From Vulcanimicrobiales bacterium (lineage in GTDB: Bacteria > Vulcanimicrobiota > Vulcanimicrobiia > Vulcanimicrobiales > Vulcanimicrobiaceae): a stretch of 64,000 bases of DNA. The notes beneath the pieces are model-generated. The model saw nothing but the letters and a program-made list of their open reading frames with translations, did no database searches and had not been told where the DNA came from. Location of the stretch: positions 27,147-91,146 of the forward strand of contig JBBRLI010000013.1 of NCBI GenBank assembly GCA_038231455.1, in the 5' to 3' direction. The translations under genes and the position numbers were made by a program. Numbering within the stretch: the first letter of the stretch is position 1; the number at the start of each line of letters is the position of its first letter. Below, in pieces: positions 2,661 to 48,709 of the stretch.

Positions 2661-3963
2661 GCTCGCGGCGAAAGGATTCCGTCGCTGCGAAGGCTTGCGC
2701 GAGATCGGCGATGAGATCGTCCGCATCTTCGATGCCAACCGAGAGTCGTACGAGATCGGGCGTGACGCCGGCCTCGATTTGTTCGACGACCGTAAGCTGT
2801 TGGTGCGTCGTCGTCGATGGGTGGATCGCAAGCGACTTTGCATCGCCGACGTTCGCGAGCAGAGAGAACAGCTTGAGTGCATCGATGAACGCCTTGGCCG
2901 CGGCAGCGCCGCCTTTCACGCCGAACGTAAGGATCGCGCCCTGCCCTTTGGGCAAGTACTTCTTGGCAAGCGGATGAGCGCGATCACCTTCGAGTCCCGG
3001 ATACTGCACCCACACGACCTCGCCGCGGCCTTGTAAGAACGTTGCGACGCGCAGCGCGTTTGTCGAGTGGCGCTCGACGCGTAAGCCGAGCGTCTCGAGG
3101 CCCTGAAGAAGAAGCCAGCCGTTGAACGGTGAGAGCGAGGATCCCAAGTCTCGCAGCAACTGGACCCGTGCTTTGACGATGAATGCCATGTTCCCGAACG
3201 AGGCTACGTAGCGAACGCCATGATACGACGGATCGGGGTCGGTGAGTTCGGGGAATTTTCCCGATGCGGCCCAATCGAAGTTGCCGCCGTCGACGATGAC
3301 GCCGCCGATTGTCGTTCCGTGTCCGCCGATAAATTTCGTCGCCGAGTGGGTGACGACGTTTGCGCCGTGTTTGATCGGATTGCTCAGATACGGCGTCGCA
3401 AGCGTGTTATCGACGATGAGCGGGATCTTCGCTTCGTGGGCGATAGCGGCCACCGCTTCGATGTCGAGTACGTCGACTTTCGGATTGCCGATGGTCTCTG
3501 CAAAAATCGCCTTCGTATTGGGTTTGATCGCGTTTTTGAAATTCGCGAGCTTACCCGGGTCGACGAGCGTCACCTCGATGCCGAATTTTGGCAGCGTGTG
3601 GACGAAGGCGGAGTGCGTCCCGCCGTACAGCGATGCGGAGCTTACGATGTGATCGCCTGCGCGGGCGATGTTGAGAATCGCGAAGATGTTCGCCGCTTGT
3701 CCTGAGGCGACGGCAAGTGCACCAACGCCGCCTTCGAGGACGGCGAGCCGCTGTTCGAGCACGTCGTTTGTGGGGTTCATGATACGCGTGTAGATGTTGC
3801 CGAACTCTTGGAGTCCGAAGAGACGCTCCGCGTGCGCGGTATCATCGAAGGTGTAGGACGTCGTTTGATAGATTGGAACGGCCCGGGCCTTCGTCGTTGG
3901 GTCGCCGCTATGACCCGCGTGAATTGCTGCGGTATCGAACTTGTACGCGTGCTCGTCGGACAT
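2647..3963 (-). CDS. metY: O-acetylhomoserine aminocarboxypropyltransferase (sulfhydrylase)
   Basis: [32 protein letters not shown] (PLP lysine), [14 protein letters not shown]. Confidence 0.93.
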
Positions 3964-7082: not shown

Positions 7083-8238
7083 CGGAGGCCTCCGTGGTAA
7101 TCGCATGCGCGATCGCAAGCAAATCGTCGTCGGTGGCATTGCGCCGCGTCTCGACGAATTTACGGAATGCTTCTTCGAAGCGCGCCGACCCTTCGGCGCC
7201 GAAGATGATACCCAAATCCGAGATGCGCGTGAGCAAGGCGTTGCGGCCCGAGTTGCGTGAGAGCGGCAAACGCGTCGCCGCACCGACGCTACTTGGGTCG
7301 ACGATTTCGTAGGTTCGGCGATCTTTGATCATCCCGTCCTGATGGATGCCGGATTCGTGCGCGAAGGCATTCGCTCCGACGATCGCCTTGTTTTTCTGCA
7401 CTGGCATGTCGGTTGCACGTGAGACCTCAGCCGAGAGTTCGGCGATGCGGTCGCTGCGAAATCCGGTCGTACATTTGAAACGGTCGTGCCGGATCGTCAT
7501 TGCGACGGCAACTTCTTCGAGCGCGCAGTTGCCCGCCCGCTCGCCGATCCCGTTAATCGTGCACTCGACTTGGCGCGCACCCGCGCCGACCGCCGAAAGG
7601 GCGTTTGCCGTTGCAAGACCCAGATCGTCGTGCGTGTGGACGCTCACGATCACGTTCTCGATCCCCGGGACTTCGCGGACGATGCGTTCCACCAAGTCCG
7701 CCATCTCTGCGGGTGTCGTGTAACCGACGGTATCCGGGACGTTGATCGTGGTGGCACCGGCGCGAATCGCTGTTGCGTACACCGCAAACAATAACGCCGA
7801 ATCGCTGCGGGTAGCGTCTTCGGCAGAGAACTCGATGTTATCGCATTTGGACTTCGCATACGCAACGTTGGTCGCGACTCGCGCAATGACGTCTTCGCGC
7901 GTCGTGCGCAGTTTGCGCTCGATGTGAATATCGCTCGTCGCAATGAAGACGTGCAGGCGCGGTGATTGCGCTTCTTTGATCGACTCCCACGCGATGTCGA
8001 TATCGCCCGTGGTACAGCGCGCGAGGGCCGCGATCTGACTGCCGCGCACGTTTCGGGCAATCTCGGCCACGCTCTTCGCGACGATCGGCGAGGCTGCGGG
8101 AAAGCCGGCCTCGATGATGTCGACGCCGGCGTCGGCGAGCATATGCGCGATGCGCAGCCGGTCATCCGGGGACATCGTCGCGCCGGGCGACTGTTCGCCA
8201 TCACGCAGGGTCGTATCAAAGAGATAAACGCGGTCCAT
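7063..8238 (-). CDS. leuA: 2-isopropylmalate synthase, short form (391 aa)
   Basis: FDTTLRDGEQSPG, HTHDDLGLA, NGIGERAGN, AFAHESGIHQDG; ends before the usual C-terminal regulatory domain. Confidence 0.9.
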   Translation of the reverse strand: MDRVYLFDTTLRDGEQSPGATMSPDDRLRIAHMLADAGVDIIEAGFPAASPIVAKSVAEIARNVRGSQIAALARCTTGDIDIAWESIKEAQSPRLHVFIATSDIHIERKLRTTREDVIARVATNVAYAKSKCDNIEFSAEDATRSDSALLFAVYATAIRAGATTINVPDTVGYTTPAEMADLVERIVREVPGIENVIVSVHTHDDLGLATANALSAVGAGARQVECTINGIGERAGNCALEEVAVAMTIRHDRFKCTTGFRSDRIAELSAEVSRATDMPVQKNKAIVGANAFAHESGIHQDGMIKDRRTYEIVDPSSVGAATRLPLSRNSGRNALLTRISDLGIIFGAEGSARFEEAFRKFVETRRNATDDDLLAIAHAITTEASDAFALR

Positions 8239-8250
8239 GCTAGTTCTCCA

Positions 8251-8291
8251 AGAAAAAAAGAAGCGAGGTCTCCGACTCGGGAGCCTCGCTT
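8251..8291 (-). terminator. Intrinsic attenuator terminator upstream of leuA
   Basis: Minus strand aagcgagg...cctcgctt stem followed by ctttttttct. Confidence 0.8.
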
Positions 8292-8318
8292 GGTGTAATG
8301 CGGGCGTAACGAATCGGG

Positions 8319-8372
8319 CTATCGAGGCCGGTAGCGAAGTCGGAGTAGAAGCGGAAGTCGGCGCAGGATCAT
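8319..8372 (-). CDS. leuL: Leu-rich leader peptide MILRRLPLLLRLRYRPR (17 aa)
   Basis: Six Leu codons (CTG, CTT, CTT, CTA, CTC, CTT); ATG overlaps the TGA of the upstream ACT gene (ATGA). Confidence 0.82.
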   Translation of the reverse strand: MILRRLPLLLRLRYRPR

Positions 8373-8587
8373 GTTGGGGCGAAGGCCGCGTCTTGCGCCG
8401 CGATCTGCGAGATTTTTGCATCGAGGCGGCGCAGTGCATCGGCGTCGCCTTCGAGCTTGAACGTTGCAAGCGTCAAATCGTCGTTGGTGCGCGCGTCGAT
8501 ACGCGCAAGCGAACAGCCAAAGCGCGGAGCGAGGTTGATGATCCGTGCGAGCAGACGCTGGTCGCGGAGGACGACAGAGATGGTCAC
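8369..8587 (-). CDS. ilvN: Acetolactate synthase small subunit-like single ACT-domain protein (72 aa)
   Basis: Position directly after ilvB with ATGA overlap; 'LLARIINLAPRFGCSL' ACT-like pattern; divergent. Confidence 0.6.
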   Translation of the reverse strand: MTISVVLRDQRLLARIINLAPRFGCSLARIDARTNDDLTLATFKLEGDADALRRLDAKISQIAAQDAAFAPT

Positions 8588-10263
8588 GGTTTCGACTCGA
8601 TCCCCTCATCGATCGCGCCGCCGGCCGGGATCATCGGCCACACGTTTTCGCTCGGATAGCAGATGCAGTGCAAAAGCATCGGGCCATCGTGGGCGAGCAA
8701 CGCTTTGAGCGCTGCATCGACGTCCTCTTCGCGATCGACGCTATCGGCATGGATGTCGTAGGCCTTGGCGATTGCGACGAAGTCCGGATTGTCGGAGAGA
8801 TTGGTTGCCGAGTAGCGCTCGTTGTAGAAGAGTTCTTGCCACTGGCGCACCATGCCGAGATTGCGGTTGTCGATCAAGAGGATCTTGACCCGAACCTTGT
8901 ACCGGCGCAGCGTCGCAAGTTCCGTGAGCGACATTTGAAAACCGCCGTCGCCGACAACCGTCACGACCTCTTTGTCGGGCTGGCCAAACGCAGCGCCGAT
9001 TGCGGCGGGCAAGCCGAACCCCATCGCGCCGAGTCCGGCCGAGGTTGCAAAGTTCCGCGGATGATCGGGGCGCACGCGCTGCGCGGCCCACATCTGGTGC
9101 TGGCCGACGTCGGTCGTCACCACCGTGCTGCCCGGCGCAATTGCGAAAAGCCGATCCATGATCGTCGTCGCCGAGAGTCCATCAACTTTGTCGCTCGGCG
9201 GCGGCGCCCACATGTTGGCGACTTCATCGCCCCAGTCATCGAAGCGCGGAATGCGCGATCGTTCGAGTTCGTCGCAGAGCGCACGCAGCGTCGTTGCAAG
9301 GTCTCCCGCAAGGGACACGCTCGCCGGGATGATTTTCGAGAATTCGCTCGGGTCGATGTCGGCGTGAATGATCGCCGCTTCTTTCGCGAAGCGATCGGTG
9401 CGGCCGGTGACGCGATCGTCGAAGCGCATGCCGAGCGCCAGAATCACATCGGCGCGGTGCACCGAAAGATTGGCGGCTTTCGAGCCGTGCATGCCGAGCA
9501 TGCCGAGGTAATGCCGGTCGCCGGGTTCGCCTGCGCCGAGGCCGTTAATCGTCGCGGTGTGCGGCAAGCCGAGCATCGAGACGAGGCGGCGATACTGTTC
9601 GAGCGCGTCTTCGCCGCGCCGGACGCCGCCGCCGATGATCGCAAGCGGACGTTTCGCTCGCCGCAGCAAGTCGGCTGCGCGAGCGATGGCGTTTCGATCG
9701 AGGGTTGGAAGCGCGGGCATCGCAATCGTGAACGTCGGCGCGGACGCCTCGTCGATTGCGGCTTTGAGCACGTCACTTGGAATATCGACGAGCACCGGCC
9801 CGGGGCGTCCGCCGGATGCAATTGCGAATGCGCGGCGCATTTCTCGCGCGATCAACTGCGGATCGCGGATGAGAATGTTGGCTTTGGTGACCGGCTGGGT
9901 GATGGCACAGACGTCGGCTTCTTGGAAGCCATCGGTGCCCATCAGATTGCTGCGAACTTGCCCCGTGATCGCGACGAGCGGAATCGAGTCCATCGATGCA
10001 TCCAGGAGGCCGGTCACGAGGTTCGTTGCGCCCGGACCCGACGTCGCACAGCACACGCCGACGCGCCCCGTGGTGCGCGCGAAGCCGCTTGCGGCAAAGA
10101 CCGCAGCCTGCTCGTGACGCACGAGGATGTGTCGGATGCTGTGCCCGTAGAGCGCATCGTAGAGCGGCATGATCGCTCCGCCCGGATAGCCGAAGATCGT
10201 CTGCACGCCTTCGGCTTCAAGCGCTTCGAGCACCGCGTGCGCCCCGCCGCGAATCGCGATCAT
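8584..10263 (-). CDS. ilvB: Acetolactate synthase large subunit
   Basis: IFGYPGGAIMP, RHEQ, ATSGPGATN, GMRFDDRVTG, DVGQHQMW, GDGGFQM, GMVRQWQ. Confidence 0.95.
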   Translation of the reverse strand: MIAIRGGAHAVLEALEAEGVQTIFGYPGGAIMPLYDALYGHSIRHILVRHEQAAVFAASGFARTTGRVGVCCATSGPGATNLVTGLLDASMDSIPLVAITGQVRSNLMGTDGFQEADVCAITQPVTKANILIRDPQLIAREMRRAFAIASGGRPGPVLVDIPSDVLKAAIDEASAPTFTIAMPALPTLDRNAIARAADLLRRAKRPLAIIGGGVRRGEDALEQYRRLVSMLGLPHTATINGLGAGEPGDRHYLGMLGMHGSKAANLSVHRADVILALGMRFDDRVTGRTDRFAKEAAIIHADIDPSEFSKIIPASVSLAGDLATTLRALCDELERSRIPRFDDWGDEVANMWAPPPSDKVDGLSATTIMDRLFAIAPGSTVVTTDVGQHQMWAAQRVRPDHPRNFATSAGLGAMGFGLPAAIGAAFGQPDKEVVTVVGDGGFQMSLTELATLRRYKVRVKILLIDNRNLGMVRQWQELFYNERYSATNLSDNPDFVAIAKAYDIHADSVDREEDVDAALKALLAHDGPMLLHCICYPSENVWPMIPAGGAIDEGIESKP

Positions 10264-11348: not shown

Positions 11349-11384
11349 AAAAAAAGCCCCCGCCGATAACCGGCGGGGGCTTTT
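11349..11384 (-). terminator. Intrinsic attenuator terminator upstream of ilvC
   Basis: Minus strand aaaagcccccgccg-gttat-cggcgggggc followed by T7. Confidence 0.88.
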
Positions 11385-11488: not shown

Positions 11489-11496
11489 CTTTGCGG

Positions 11497-11526
11497 TTTG
11501 TAGCACGCAACGCTGCAGAGTGTCAA
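11497..11526 (-). promoter_or_regulatory. Candidate promoter for the ilv leader (TTGACA-N18-TACAAA, extended TG)
   Basis: tgtcaa on + at 11521-11526; the -10-like element lies 8 nt before the leader ATG. Confidence 0.5.
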
Positions 11527-11541
11527 CGGTTTCTGCGCGTC

Positions 11542-12462
11542 GTGTCGGAAAAAAAATCGGCGGGACGCGGCATTGCGGCGCTCCTGGCGCTGAGTTTGCT
11601 CTGGGGTTCGAATTGGGCCGTGATGAAAATTGCGCTGCGTGACGTCGGTCCGATCGCATTTGCCGCGATGCGTAACGGACTTGGTGCCGTGGCCTTATTC
11701 GCCGTTCTACTGGCGTTGCATCGAGCCACCCGTCCAGTCGGTTGGCGCGGATTGATCGTGCTCGGTCTGCTGCAGACGACCGGACAAGTGGGACTTGCGA
11801 CGTGGGCGCTTACGGCGGGCGGTGCGGGCAAAGTTGCGGTGCTTGTCTACACGATGCCGTTTTGGGTGGTACTGCTGGCGTGGCCGCTACTCGGCGAGCG
11901 CATCGTGCGGCTGCAGTGGGTTGCACTTACGTTCGGCCTCGTGGGCATCGTCGCAATTGTCGATCCGCGTACGCTCGGCGGCGCGTCGCTCGGATCCGAT
12001 CTGCTCGCGATCGGCAGCGGCGTGTGCTGGGCGCTCGGCTCGATCGTTGCCAAACGCCTGCGACTCCAAGGCGACGTCCTCAACATCACCGCCTGGCAAA
12101 TGCTCTTCGGGTCGATTCCGCTCGTCGTGCTCGCCGTGTTGATCCCGGAGCGTGCGATCTTCTGGTCGGCAAACTTCACTTGGGCGCTGGCGTACAACGT
12201 CGTCCCGGCGACCGCCCTTGCCTGGGTTCTCTGGATGTTCGCGCTGCGCAATCTCAAAGCGAGCGTCGCCGCGATGGGTTCGCTCTTGAACCCCATCGTC
12301 GGTGTCGGGGTCGCCTGGCTCGTCCTCGGCGACCGCCCCGGGGGGCTTGAATTTGCCGGGATCGCGACGATCGCTATCGCCCTGCTCGTCGTTTCGTTCG
12401 GTCCGGGCCGCGGTGCCACGGATGCGCGCGCGAAACCCGACGTGCAATCTGCTCGTGTATGA
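11542..12462 (+). CDS. EamA/DMT family transporter
   Basis: Duplicated EamA pattern (LLWGSNW; YTMPFWVVLLAWPLLGERI; LLNPIVGVGVAWLVLGD); GTG 11542 preferred over TTG 11491. Confidence 0.85.
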   Translation: MSEKKSAGRGIAALLALSLLWGSNWAVMKIALRDVGPIAFAAMRNGLGAVALFAVLLALHRATRPVGWRGLIVLGLLQTTGQVGLATWALTAGGAGKVAVLVYTMPFWVVLLAWPLLGERIVRLQWVALTFGLVGIVAIVDPRTLGGASLGSDLLAIGSGVCWALGSIVAKRLRLQGDVLNITAWQMLFGSIPLVVLAVLIPERAIFWSANFTWALAYNVVPATALAWVLWMFALRNLKASVAAMGSLLNPIVGVGVAWLVLGDRPGGLEFAGIATIAIALLVVSFGPGRGATDARAKPDVQSARV

Positions 12463-47003: not shown

Positions 47004-47107
47004 CTGGGACCTAAGACCCAGTTTCAGATCGAGATAGAGGGTCCGGTTACTTTCTGGTCGCAAACCACTCGCAAGGGACGCGGTGACCACGCGTACCCAT
47101 AACTGCC

Positions 47108-47240
47108 GTGATCACTGAGTCCGAGGATCGCATCTCGGAACGGGGGACTCTCAGGTGGGGTGAATGTGCCGGTCGGCACTAGGGCGATTCTTTCCGTCCG
47201 AACCCGTCAACTAACCCCGTAAGTGTTGGAAAGAAGGAGC
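47108..47240 (+). ncRNA. c-di-AMP (ydaO/yuaA) riboswitch
   Basis: Conserved blocks ctgagtcc, ggaacggggga, ggggtgaat, tagggc, ccgaacccgtcaactaaccccgtaag; pseudoknot pair ttctttcc/ggaaagaa. Confidence 0.88.
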
Positions 47241-47245
47241 AGCTT

Positions 47246-48037
47246 TTGCCTCGTTTATCCCACACTGGGATTTTTGCGTTCGCTTTGACGATCGCCACCT
47301 TCGGCATATGCGAAGCGAAAACGCACGTTGTAACCCCCGGCGAGACGCTGAACTCGATCGCCCAGACCGGGCGCCTCTCACCCGAAACGATCTCAGCTCT
47401 CAACCAGCTCGAGAGCGCCGCGGACCTCCGTCCGGGCCAAGTAATCGCCCTCGATCGCGAATCGACCGAAAACCTACCCGTTCCGAAGGCCGCGATCGAA
47501 GCCGCAAAAGCGCGACTCGCCGCTGCCGATGTCGCGGCCCAGCCCCGCGCCGGTGCAGATCTCGCGATGTGGGACGGACAAGCGGAGCCCGCGAAACCCG
47601 CCGCCGTTAAGACGGCTGCCTCGAGCCCGCTCCACCGCTTCGCGGCGCACATCGCCGCCCGCACGACGGCGATTGCCTCGAGCCTCACGCGCAACGCTCT
47701 GCGCTTCATCGGCGTCCCGTACGTTTTCGGCGGTACGTCGGCGAACGGATTCGACTGCTCGGGATACGTCCAGCACGTTTTCGCGATGCTCGGGCACCAT
47801 CTCCCGCGAACGGCCGACGCGCAATATGCCGCAGGCCGACCGATCGATGGTACGATGATTGCCGGCGATCTGGTGTTCTTCCAAACGTACGAACGCGGAC
47901 CGTCGCACGTGGGAATCTATCTCGGCGATGGAAAGTTCGTACATGCAAGTTCCAGCCACGGCGTTACGGTCTCCGCGTTAAGTGAGGGATACTGGCGCTC
48001 TCGCTACCTCGGCGCGAAACGAGTCGCAGCCCAGTAA
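47246..48037 (+). CDS. LysM + NlpC/P60 peptidoglycan endopeptidase
   Basis: Signal peptide, HVVTPGETLNSIA LysM, GVPYVFGG, GFDCSG, SHVGIY, HASSS. Confidence 0.9.
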   Translation: MPRLSHTGIFAFALTIATFGICEAKTHVVTPGETLNSIAQTGRLSPETISALNQLESAADLRPGQVIALDRESTENLPVPKAAIEAAKARLAAADVAAQPRAGADLAMWDGQAEPAKPAAVKTAASSPLHRFAAHIAARTTAIASSLTRNALRFIGVPYVFGGTSANGFDCSGYVQHVFAMLGHHLPRTADAQYAAGRPIDGTMIAGDLVFFQTYERGPSHVGIYLGDGKFVHASSSHGVTVSALSEGYWRSRYLGAKRVAAQ

Positions 48038-48536: not shown

Positions 48537-48538
48537 AT

Positions 48539-48652
48539 GTATTCCCCGCAGCGATCGGGGTGAGGCGCGATAACCGGTGGCGGGGAATACGTTTTCCCAC
48601 CACCGTGGAGGTTGGGCACGGCGGTCCTGTGTGGGCAATACATGTATTCCCC
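48539..48652. repeat. Tandem ~52-53 nt hairpin units (two full, one truncated) in the tRNA trailer
   Basis: Units start at 48539, 48591 and 48644 with GT(A/T)TTCCC; the full units end in GGG(G/C)AATAC. Confidence 0.6.
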
Positions 48653-48658
48653 AAAGGT

Positions 48659-48692
48659 AAAGAGACCGGCCGTTAAGGCCGGTCTCTTTTTT
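48659..48692 (+). terminator. Intrinsic terminator, probably bidirectional
   Basis: aaagagaccggcc-gttaa-ggccggtctc followed by T6. Confidence 0.85.
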
Positions 48693-48709
48693 GTTTGAGT
48701 CGATTGCGG

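Follow-up and report, generated by a model that had tools for sequence, protein, structure and literature searches.

A leucine-rich mini-gene upstream of leuA was characterized in a 64,000-nucleotide stretch of DNA from a Vulcanimicrobiales bacterium (GenBank assembly GCA_038231455.1, contig JBBRLI010000013.1), the whole of which is referred to here as the window. This mini-gene, designated leader 2, lies between a 72-codon open reading frame (ORF) and leuA, and the segment reaching from its start codon through the U tract before leuA (8372-8250) is proposed to form a leucine-responsive, ribosome-mediated attenuator located inside an operon and loaded with ribosomes by termination-reinitiation. 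All coordinates of leader 2, its terminator and the ilv-leu-metY transcription unit are on the minus strand. The proposal draws on sequence features of leader 2, on their rarity in the window, on alternative folds of the RNA and on the same architecture at three other places in the window, before the genes for 3-deoxy-D-arabino-heptulosonate 7-phosphate (DAHP) synthase, ilvC and metY; from these we infer that leader 2 is translated, that its ribosomes arrive by reinitiation and that termination before leuA responds to leucine. A regulated terminator before leuA is very likely, and its control by a leader peptide that senses leucine is probable. Granted such a leader peptide, loading by termination-reinitiation is fairly likely, and the complete chain has about an even chance of being correct.

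The leader 2 reading frame and its start signal

Leader 2 (MILRRLPLLLRLRYRPR, 17 codons, 8372-8319) reads ATG ATC CTG CGC CGA CTT CCG CTT CTA CTC CGA CTT CGC TAC CGG CCT CGA TAG, with the TAG stop at 8321-8319. Six of its codons specify Leu (codons 3, 6, 8, 9, 10 and 12; 8366-8337), including the CTT-CTA-CTC run to which a preliminary description of this DNA had drawn attention; three of the six are CTT, and CTA, CTC and CTG occur singly. The two strands of the window together contain 522 ATG-initiated ORFs of 10-40 codons; leader 2 is the only one of them in which Leu makes up 6/17 or more, and one of three that contain a run of three Leu residues. The A/T-ending Leu codons are enriched, as had been suggested: four of the six are CTT or CTA, codons that account for 18% of Leu positions in 30 long, non-overlapping ORFs of the window (binomial P ~0.012, calculated by hand from the window frequencies). 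Leu usage in those ORFs is 44% CTC, 21% CTG, 15% CTT, 13.5% TTG, 3% CTA and 3% TTA, and the G+C content of the window is 61.9%. As a separate observation, the letters ATGATC with which leader 2 opens (8372) are also the first letters of ilvB (10263), leuD (5748) and leuB (5227) on the same strand and of the DAHP synthase gene on the plus strand (1821).

The start codon of leader 2 (8372-8370) overlaps the TGA (8371-8369) of the upstream 72-codon ORF (8587-8369) in an ATGA junction, as first described, and the accompanying remarks that neither a separate Shine-Dalgarno sequence nor a TTGACA-type promoter is evident were both confirmed, as were all other sequence features that it listed. GGAG, GAGG and AGGA do not occur in the 22 nt before the ATG. 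A relaxed scan for promoters of the sigma-70 type (-35 element with at least 4/6 matches, spacer of 16-19 nt, -10 element TAnnn followed by T or A) returned no candidate in the 728 nt upstream of leader 2, and none in the 756 nt upstream of leader 3, the corresponding mini-gene before metY; the same scan recovers both known leader promoters in the window, with a background of 0.73 matches per kb. The hexamer that occupies leaderless spacing, 7 nt before the leader 2 ATG, is CCTTCG and does not resemble a -10 box.

Leader 2 has neither a Shine-Dalgarno sequence nor an AUG placed as if at the 5' terminus of a promoter-derived transcript, and has instead an ATGA overlap of the kind also present at the leuC/leuD and leuD/leuB junctions. 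Elsewhere in the operon, the TAG of ilvC is followed directly by the ATG of ilvB, and ilvB and the 72-codon ORF share a GTGA overlap. A Shine-Dalgarno sequence is lacking in all leaders of the window, as well as in the leader of a related locus described below (L001), and is present for ilvC, leuA, leuD, metY, the DAHP synthase gene and the ilvB of L001. Because leuD and leuB both begin at ATGA overlaps, leuB without a Shine-Dalgarno sequence, restart at such junctions seems to be used for essential genes of the operon. Termination-reinitiation and scanning by 70S ribosomes occur in bacteria, and, since stop/start overlaps prevail in this operon, the simplest route to translation of leader 2 would be a restart by the ribosome that has just terminated.

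An attenuator with the same Leu-sensing leader could instead be fed by its own internal transcription start, one that does not resemble sigma-70 promoters or that lies further upstream in ilvB, the ATGA overlap being incidental, for example if a once leaderless leader had become joined to the end of the ilv genes. We consider such an internal start unlikely. It would agree with the promoter-proximal leaders of the window and of L001, which start 7-8 nt after a -10 box and indicate that leaders of this lineage normally possess promoters of their own. It would also relieve a physiologically awkward arrangement in which leuACDB and metY depend serially on upstream attenuators, metY requiring read-through of all three, an oddity that hints at internal promoters missed by a sigma-70 consensus scan. 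Against it stand the absence of -35 and -10 elements both at leaderless spacing and throughout the 728 nt scanned, and the consideration that a transcript begun further upstream would leave the leader 2 AUG internal and devoid of a Shine-Dalgarno sequence, with no obvious route to its translation.

Terminator 2, its competing fold and the proposed role of a translating ribosome

Downstream of leader 2, a predicted hairpin of 11 bp with one bulge and a 6-nt loop (terminator 2, 8290-8262; -19.8 kcal/mol in context) is followed by the U tract UCUUUUUUUCUU (8261-8250), which abuts the leuA Shine-Dalgarno sequence GGAG (8249-8246), the leuA ATG being at 8238. Since terminator 2 ends 3 nt ahead of that Shine-Dalgarno sequence, which leaves no space for a promoter behind it, every leuA transcript must traverse it. 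Runs of at least six T are rare, with 22 on both strands of the 64 kb, and as we read the scan only four of them directly abut strong hairpins, at 1789 and 48687 on the plus strand and at 11355 and 8259 on the minus strand. A looser scan (at least six T in nine, hairpin of -12 kcal/mol or lower) gave 46 candidates in the window, among which compact G+C-rich hairpins right before amino-acid biosynthesis genes were found at the genes for DAHP synthase, ilvC, leuA and metY. One further hairpin with a U tract, between rpsT and a gene for a tetratricopeptide repeat protein (~42452, minus strand), was considered as an internal attenuator and rejected as an ordinary terminator after the gene for ribosomal protein S20.

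The 28 nt of non-coding sequence between the leader 2 stop codon and terminator 2 contain the 5' part of a predicted antiterminator (8317-8300), which begins 1 nt past the stop codon. In this fold, CCGAUUCG (8317-8310) pairs with CGAGUCGG (8279-8272), and GCCCGC (8305-8300) pairs with GCGAGGC (8289-8283). Taken by themselves, the antiterminator (8317-8300/8289-8272) and the terminator pairs are predicted to be mutually exclusive and have energies of -20.7 and -18.6 kcal/mol, respectively, and the minimum free energy (MFE) structure of the whole leader 2 region is the antiterminator structure rather than the terminator. None of 2000 dinucleotide shuffles of the 28 nt paired as well with the 5' half of the terminator.

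Further pairs involve the coding sequence itself. Leader 2 contains a 13-nt direct repeat (8336-8366; copies CUGCGCCGACUUC and CUACUCCGACUUC, 18 nt apart), the second copy of which is perfectly complementary over 8 nt (8345-8338) to the loop and 3' arm of the terminator (8277-8270) and is a further alternative antiterminator; in the MFE structure of the full region, CUCCGA (8346-8341) is also paired with the leuA Shine-Dalgarno region. The pairing originally put forward, between the 3' end of the leader and the terminator arm (GGCCUCG, 8329-8323, with CGAGGCU, 8288-8282), is possible in that it comprises 7 bp including one G-U pair (-9.3 kcal/mol), but it is minor, appearing in no MFE structure and having an ensemble probability of 0.00-0.21.

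The influence of a translating ribosome was modeled by holding 30 nt unpaired, an assumed footprint that extends from 15 nt before to 14 nt after the first base of the A site. In nascent RNA ending before the 3' arm of the terminator, the antiterminator is predicted to form with the A site at codons 2-14; once the A site reaches the stop codon, the outer helix of this fold disappears. At equilibrium, the probability of the terminator is 0.06-0.21 with the A site at codons 2-8, and 0.07-0.21 at Leu codons 3, 6, 8 and 12. The values at codons 11-14 are 0.32, 0.18, 0.59 and 0.10. With the A site at codon 15 through the stop codon the probability is at least 0.99, and the six Leu codons all precede these positions. 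The firm result of the model is that a ribosome on the last four codons of leader 2 is predicted to force the terminator. Elsewhere the two folds are too close in energy to be ranked, so that the case for antitermination during stalling is a kinetic one, resting on the order of synthesis, and not a thermodynamic one. It had been proposed that the leu genes are transcribed only when the ilv genes are translated; this is not supported by the predicted structure, because only a ribosome at codons 15 to stop forces the terminator, and upstream translation would therefore be needed for repression and not for expression.

In the proposed mechanism, a ribosome that ends the 72-codon ORF at its TGA (8371-8369) would restart at the overlapping AUG (8372-8370) without a Shine-Dalgarno sequence and read leader 2. 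When Leu-tRNA is plentiful, the ribosome would reach codons 15 to stop and cover CCGAUUCG (8317-8310), upon which the terminator (8290-8262) would form and the polymerase would stop in the U tract. When Leu-tRNA is scarce, the ribosome would wait at one of the six Leu codons (8366-8337), leaving 8317-8300 free to pair with 8289-8272 before the 3' arm of the terminator has been made, and transcription would continue into leuACDB. Combined with leader 1, the isoleucine/leucine/valine (ILV) leader before ilvC, leader 2 could allow the Val/Ile genes to be expressed without the leucine genes from one mRNA.

Several observations weigh against this reading. The equilibrium model does not separate the two states cleanly: the terminator has a probability of 0.87 and 0.83 when Leu codons 9 and 10, respectively, occupy the A site, of 0.59 at codon 13 and of 0.57 without any ribosome, in which case the two folds are nearly isoenergetic. 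The antiterminator energy is matched by 104 of 2000 random genomic 28-mers, which places it only in the best 5%, and the fold of the whole region is no more stable than those of shuffled sequences (z = -0.85). Folding of the leader 2 region gave no 1:2 hairpin of the anti-antiterminator or pause type; a ribosome handed over from the preceding cistron, and already moving with the polymerase, could explain its absence. Leader 2 also encodes as many Arg as Leu residues (6/17, three of them specified by the minor codon CGA), a feature absent from the preliminary description, and this enrichment fits a C/T/G-rich repeat as well as it fits selection for Leu. Finally, at the only related locus retrieved, L001, the small ORF is followed by ilvC and not leuA.

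The terminator could instead be unregulated and leaky, setting a fixed ilv:leu ratio or ending an ilv transcript, with the short ORF a chance product of the C/T-rich repeat. Arg is as frequent as Leu, the repeat lies within the ORF, the region as a whole is not unusually stable, the ORF has no comparative support, and a terminator and antiterminator so nearly equal in energy would by themselves give partial termination. We nevertheless judge this possibility less likely still than an internal promoter. The Leu-richness of leader 2 is found in 1 of 522 short ORFs, and its Leu codons are minor ones; its stop codon falls 1 nt before the antiterminator arm and its start falls exactly on the upstream stop codon. 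Within the same 64 kb, aro, ilv and met genes are each preceded by a leader that matches their amino acids and by a terminator, which makes chance an unlikely origin for a Leu-rich leader before leuA.

At the gathering score, no Rfam family, including Leu_leader (RF00512) and the T-box, matched the leader 2 region, and at E <=10 the sole match within 8150-8650 was an irrelevant small-RNA model (E = 2.9) inside the coding region. Regulation of the terminator by a protein that binds RNA, by uncharged tRNA or by an RNA that binds a small molecule and stabilizes the 8317-8272 antiterminator is very unlikely: the mutually exclusive folds exist irrespective of the ORF, and the mode of action of the actinobacterial leuA 'LEU element', which has a Leu-rich upstream ORF, is reported as unclear in the account given in PMC1262725, but no Rfam family is matched even at the relaxed threshold, the ~130-nt spacer is too short for a T-box, and the 28 non-coding nt between stop codon and terminator leave little room for an aptamer.

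Companion leaders, the operon and a probable acetolactate synthase partner

The leader-terminator arrangement proposed for leader 2 was compared with those before ilvC, the DAHP synthase gene and metY. At the head of the operon, a promoter-like site (11526-11497) comprising TTGACA (11526-11521), an 18-nt spacer and TACAAA (11502-11497) lies 8 nt before the ATG of leader 1 (MFSRSLLLVVSLLLAVLITDRRFAFT, 11488-11408), which encodes seven Leu, four Val and one Ile and lacks a Shine-Dalgarno sequence. The spacing between -10 box and ATG suggests a leaderless or nearly leaderless mRNA. The CTT bias of leader 2 recurs here, in four of the seven Leu codons. Terminator 1 (11384-11349), a GC-rich hairpin with seven T (11355-11349), is located right before the ilvC Shine-Dalgarno sequence. 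On the plus strand, the aromatic leader MNAKWFSYWYFTSLQRIGAG (1666-1728; whole element 1629-1795) encodes two Trp, two Phe and two Tyr within a row of seven residues, is preceded at 7 nt by a promoter of the form TTGACA-N18-TAGGCT, and is followed by a terminator (1767-1795) and the DAHP synthase gene (1821-2660).

Leader 3 (4144-4067) begins 6 nt after the leuB TAG, lacks a Shine-Dalgarno sequence and encodes four Met, six Thr and two Cys. The 5' strand of its predicted antiterminator (4091-4071) is followed by a terminator hairpin of -30 kcal/mol (4041-4008) and a U-rich tail (4007-4000), and metY begins at 3963. The folding of leader 3 comprises full 1:2, 2:3 and 3:4 pairings, the first of which joins the Met/Thr codons to the antiterminator strand. 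Leaders 2 and 3, the two internal leaders of the operon, share the same odd design.

A genome scan with the alignment of the small protein encoded by the 72-codon ORF returned a single locus, L001, from a Vulcanimicrobiota metagenome-assembled genome. Before its ilvB, this locus carries TTGACG-N17-TATGGT and, 7 nt further on, the ATG of MFAHTLVLVVVVLISRSAMDRYGLATA, after which come a terminator, GGAG and an ATG (L001 2131-2310, plus strand). The L001 region and the leader 1 region of the window can be aligned; conserved between them are the start and stop of the leader, the stem of the terminator and a GGAxCGG segment. A protein search with the 96-residue ORF that is open in the leader 2 frame (8609-8319), which might have been annotated in relatives, found no homologue. 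The promoter-proximal leaders (leader 1, the aromatic leader and that of L001) all have their ATG 7-8 nt after the -10 box, which suggests that the three are translated from leaderless mRNAs. When the ribosome model was applied to the aromatic, ILV, Met/Thr and L001 leaders as a positive control, the hold of the antiterminator on the terminator arm dropped once the ribosome was past the regulatory codons. Because amino-acid-matched leaders with terminators recur before aro, ilv and met genes, leader-peptide attenuation is evidently a habit of this organism.

A more extended proposal, conceivable though doubtful, is that the operon functions as a relay supraoperon, in which a transcript of ~9 kb passes three serial leader checkpoints (ILV, then Leu, then Met/Thr), the internal two having neither promoter nor Shine-Dalgarno sequence and being loaded by the ribosome that has just terminated upstream. 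Loading would occur through the ATGA overlap at leader 2 and through the stop-N6-ATG spacing at leader 3, and classical attenuators' pause hairpin, by which ribosome and polymerase are synchronized, would here be replaced by the handing over of the leading ribosome. A lineage whose LeuA lacks the allosteric domain would, under this proposal, control its leucine branch by attenuation alone.

The arrangement of the genes is best explained by one long transcription unit in the order leader 1, ilvC, ilvB, the 72-residue ACT protein, leader 2, leuA, leuC, leuD, leuB, leader 3 and metY. Ketol-acid reductoisomerase is encoded by ilvC (11319-10264; family match), the start of which was set at ATG 11319 because the N terminus of the L001 IlvC and a GGGGA Shine-Dalgarno sequence agree on it. 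The following ORF (10263-8584) encodes an acetolactate synthase large subunit of the ilvB/ilvG type (Pfam TPP_enzyme N/M/C, NCBIfam TIGR00118). Family matches likewise identified a short form of leuA encoding 391 residues (8238-7063), leuC (7082-5745), leuD (5748-5224), leuB (5227-4151) and, as the last gene of the unit, a metY-type O-acetylhomoserine sulfhydrylase (homocysteine synthase; 3963-2647).

The LeuA encoded here lacks the C-terminal LeuA_dimer domain, which mediates leucine feedback; the best NCBIfam model is covered at positions 5-394 of 516, and the domain is not hidden in another frame, because leuC starts before leuA ends. The same short LeuA is the rule among relatives named Eremiobacterota/Vulcanimicrobiota and was found under the names Eremiobacteraeota, Baltobacteraceae, Vulcanimicrobiaceae, Velthaea and Aquilonibacter, which also assigns the window to that phylum. 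Where the enzyme has no allosteric domain, it would make sense for leucine to act on transcription at the branch point. One LeuA entry with 58% identity (P0049) has an N-terminal extension with the residues SPRRFGGGFFYLS, resembling a G+C-rich hairpin and T run read in frame, much as terminator 1 of the window appears when read in the ilvC frame; this hints that a terminator before leuA may not be unique to the present genome. None of 14 small proteins could be placed compatibly in another frame of the extension (overlap of at least 45 nt, same strand), so that adjacency of the small ORF and leuA in that relative is unsupported. Degenerate back-translation of the extension in search of a Leu-rich leader was set aside as circular without third codon positions.

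The 72-residue product of the GTG-initiated ORF at 8587-8369 had been labeled ilvN. Its position and its predicted ACT-type fold agree with that label, but it has no sequence match to known IlvN. No match was obtained in Pfam (E <=10), NCBIfam (E <=1) or the sequences of the PDB, and a profile search against the PDB gave only spurious ones. Thirteen relatives of 68-72 residues share an invariant RLLARI.N.A.RFGC motif and ALRRL. A profile search of 1.84 billion representatives returned 41 proteins at E <=0.001, nearly all of 51-97 residues, and no link to the acetohydroxyacid synthase (AHAS) small subunits of 160-170 residues. Close relatives sit on metagenome contigs; they are 89% identical for the small protein (P0002 and P0003) and 88-96% identical for LeuA (P0016-P0022). 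In L001, the homologue lies between ilvB and ilvC, and the family adjoins acetolactate synthase in both contexts seen, the window and L001. On these grounds of sequence, the 72-codon ORF is a real gene.

The predicted model of the 72-residue protein has a predicted local distance difference test (pLDDT) score of 81.8 and the order E-H-E-E-H (beta-alpha-beta-beta-alpha). The best Foldseek matches in the PDB were Escherichia coli IlvH (2f1f_B, TMq 0.73), the Nitrosomonas small subunit 2pc6 and then other ACT domains, all with E >0.001. Complex prediction with the large subunit gave weak support (score 0.58, best of three controls 0.00), with runs agreeing in at least 92% of contacts and a partner pLDDT of at least 87. 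Of 157 solved complexes, 116 reach the mark applied to such scores, as do 2 of 215 mismatched pairs; with a score of 0.60 or under, however, only 18 of those solved complexes reach it, together with both of the passing mismatches, and likeness to AHAS holoenzymes, which have been solved, may contribute. The protein is probably a minimal, lineage-specific regulatory subunit of AHAS.

Other features of the window include an ORF for a DMT/EamA-type transporter (11491-12462, plus strand), which has weak NCBIfam matches to amino acid/metabolite exporters and is oriented divergently to the promoter of the ilv leader. Because the start listed for the ORF overlaps this promoter, its true start is probably further downstream. 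A c-di-AMP riboswitch of the ydaO type (85 bits; 47103-47240, plus strand) lies upstream of a gene for a LysM/NlpC-P60 cell-wall hydrolase (47246-48037). Directly after a tRNA-Gln(UUG) gene, a long hairpin of ~105 nt closed by repeated ATGTATTCCCC is followed by a strong bidirectional terminator (48537-48695, plus strand). This element has an MFE of -79.7 kcal/mol (z = -5.3 relative to shuffles), matched no Rfam family at the gathering score, and is possibly an unknown small RNA.

Relation to known attenuators

Leader-peptide attenuation is a textbook mechanism described for the 5' ends of transcripts, and leader 2 is an unusual placement of it. In a search of open-licence PMC papers and bioRxiv, no title or abstract listed described a leader ORF that is internal to an operon and overlaps the stop codon of a gene upstream. 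If the proposed reading is correct, one mRNA would carry separate checkpoints at a pathway branch, and leader 2 would be a natural case in which to examine how restart without a Shine-Dalgarno sequence can serve as a regulatory input. The reading would also suggest that Eremiobacterota/Vulcanimicrobiota, whose LeuA has no feedback domain, depend on attenuation to control leucine synthesis. For annotation, the gain consists of four previously unannotated mini-ORFs and a probable lineage-specific ACT-fold partner of acetolactate synthase.

The closest counterpart is the enterobacterial leuL attenuator (RF00512, Leu_leader), in which a short ORF with a Leu run likewise precedes leuA, with a terminator and a competing antiterminator in between, and in which minor Leu codons are likewise used; in the Salmonella leu leader, rare CUA codons have a role. 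Unlike leuL, which is located at the 5' end, leader 2 is internal to the operon, has no Shine-Dalgarno sequence, promoter-like site or 1:2 hairpin, and has its start codon on the stop codon of the gene before it. Operon-internal attenuators are found in the Bacillus subtilis pyr operon (PyrR) and at the trp genes of the aro supraoperon (TRAP), where terminator/antiterminator switches are also placed between cistrons but are protein-dependent, being read by RNA-binding proteins and not by the ribosome.

Attenuator ORFs translated without a Shine-Dalgarno sequence have been predicted as leader peptides on leaderless mRNAs in Deinococcus deserti, as described in PMC4007540, and the polycysteine ORFs of mycobacteria are presented as leaderless leaders in bioRxiv 10.1101/834739. 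The promoter-proximal leaders of the window and of L001 resemble these; the leaders of those accounts start at the 5' end of the transcript, whereas leaders 2 and 3 have no promoter and abut the stop codon of the upstream cistron. In E. coli rph-pyrE, use of an internal terminator depends on how far a ribosome translating the upstream cistron trails the polymerase (Bonekamp et al. 1984, as cited in PMC2784333). As that system is recounted there, the upstream gene itself is the leader and the signal is the UTP-dependent speed of the polymerase, whereas here a separate, amino-acid-specific mini-ORF is interposed between stop codon and terminator.

Among Firmicutes, ilv and leu genes are also controlled by Leu-dependent termination. 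In Staphylococcus aureus, a single 5' attenuator peptide rich in Leu governs both ilv and leu, so that Leu represses Val synthesis, according to PMC5794164, and the B. subtilis ilv-leu operon has a 5' Leu T-box, as cited in the same source. In contrast to the one 5' element of these operons, two elements would act in series at the pathway branch in the present operon, an ILV leader followed by a Leu-only leader, an order which, if the proposed reading holds, would avoid the shutting off of valine synthesis by leucine that is described for S. aureus.

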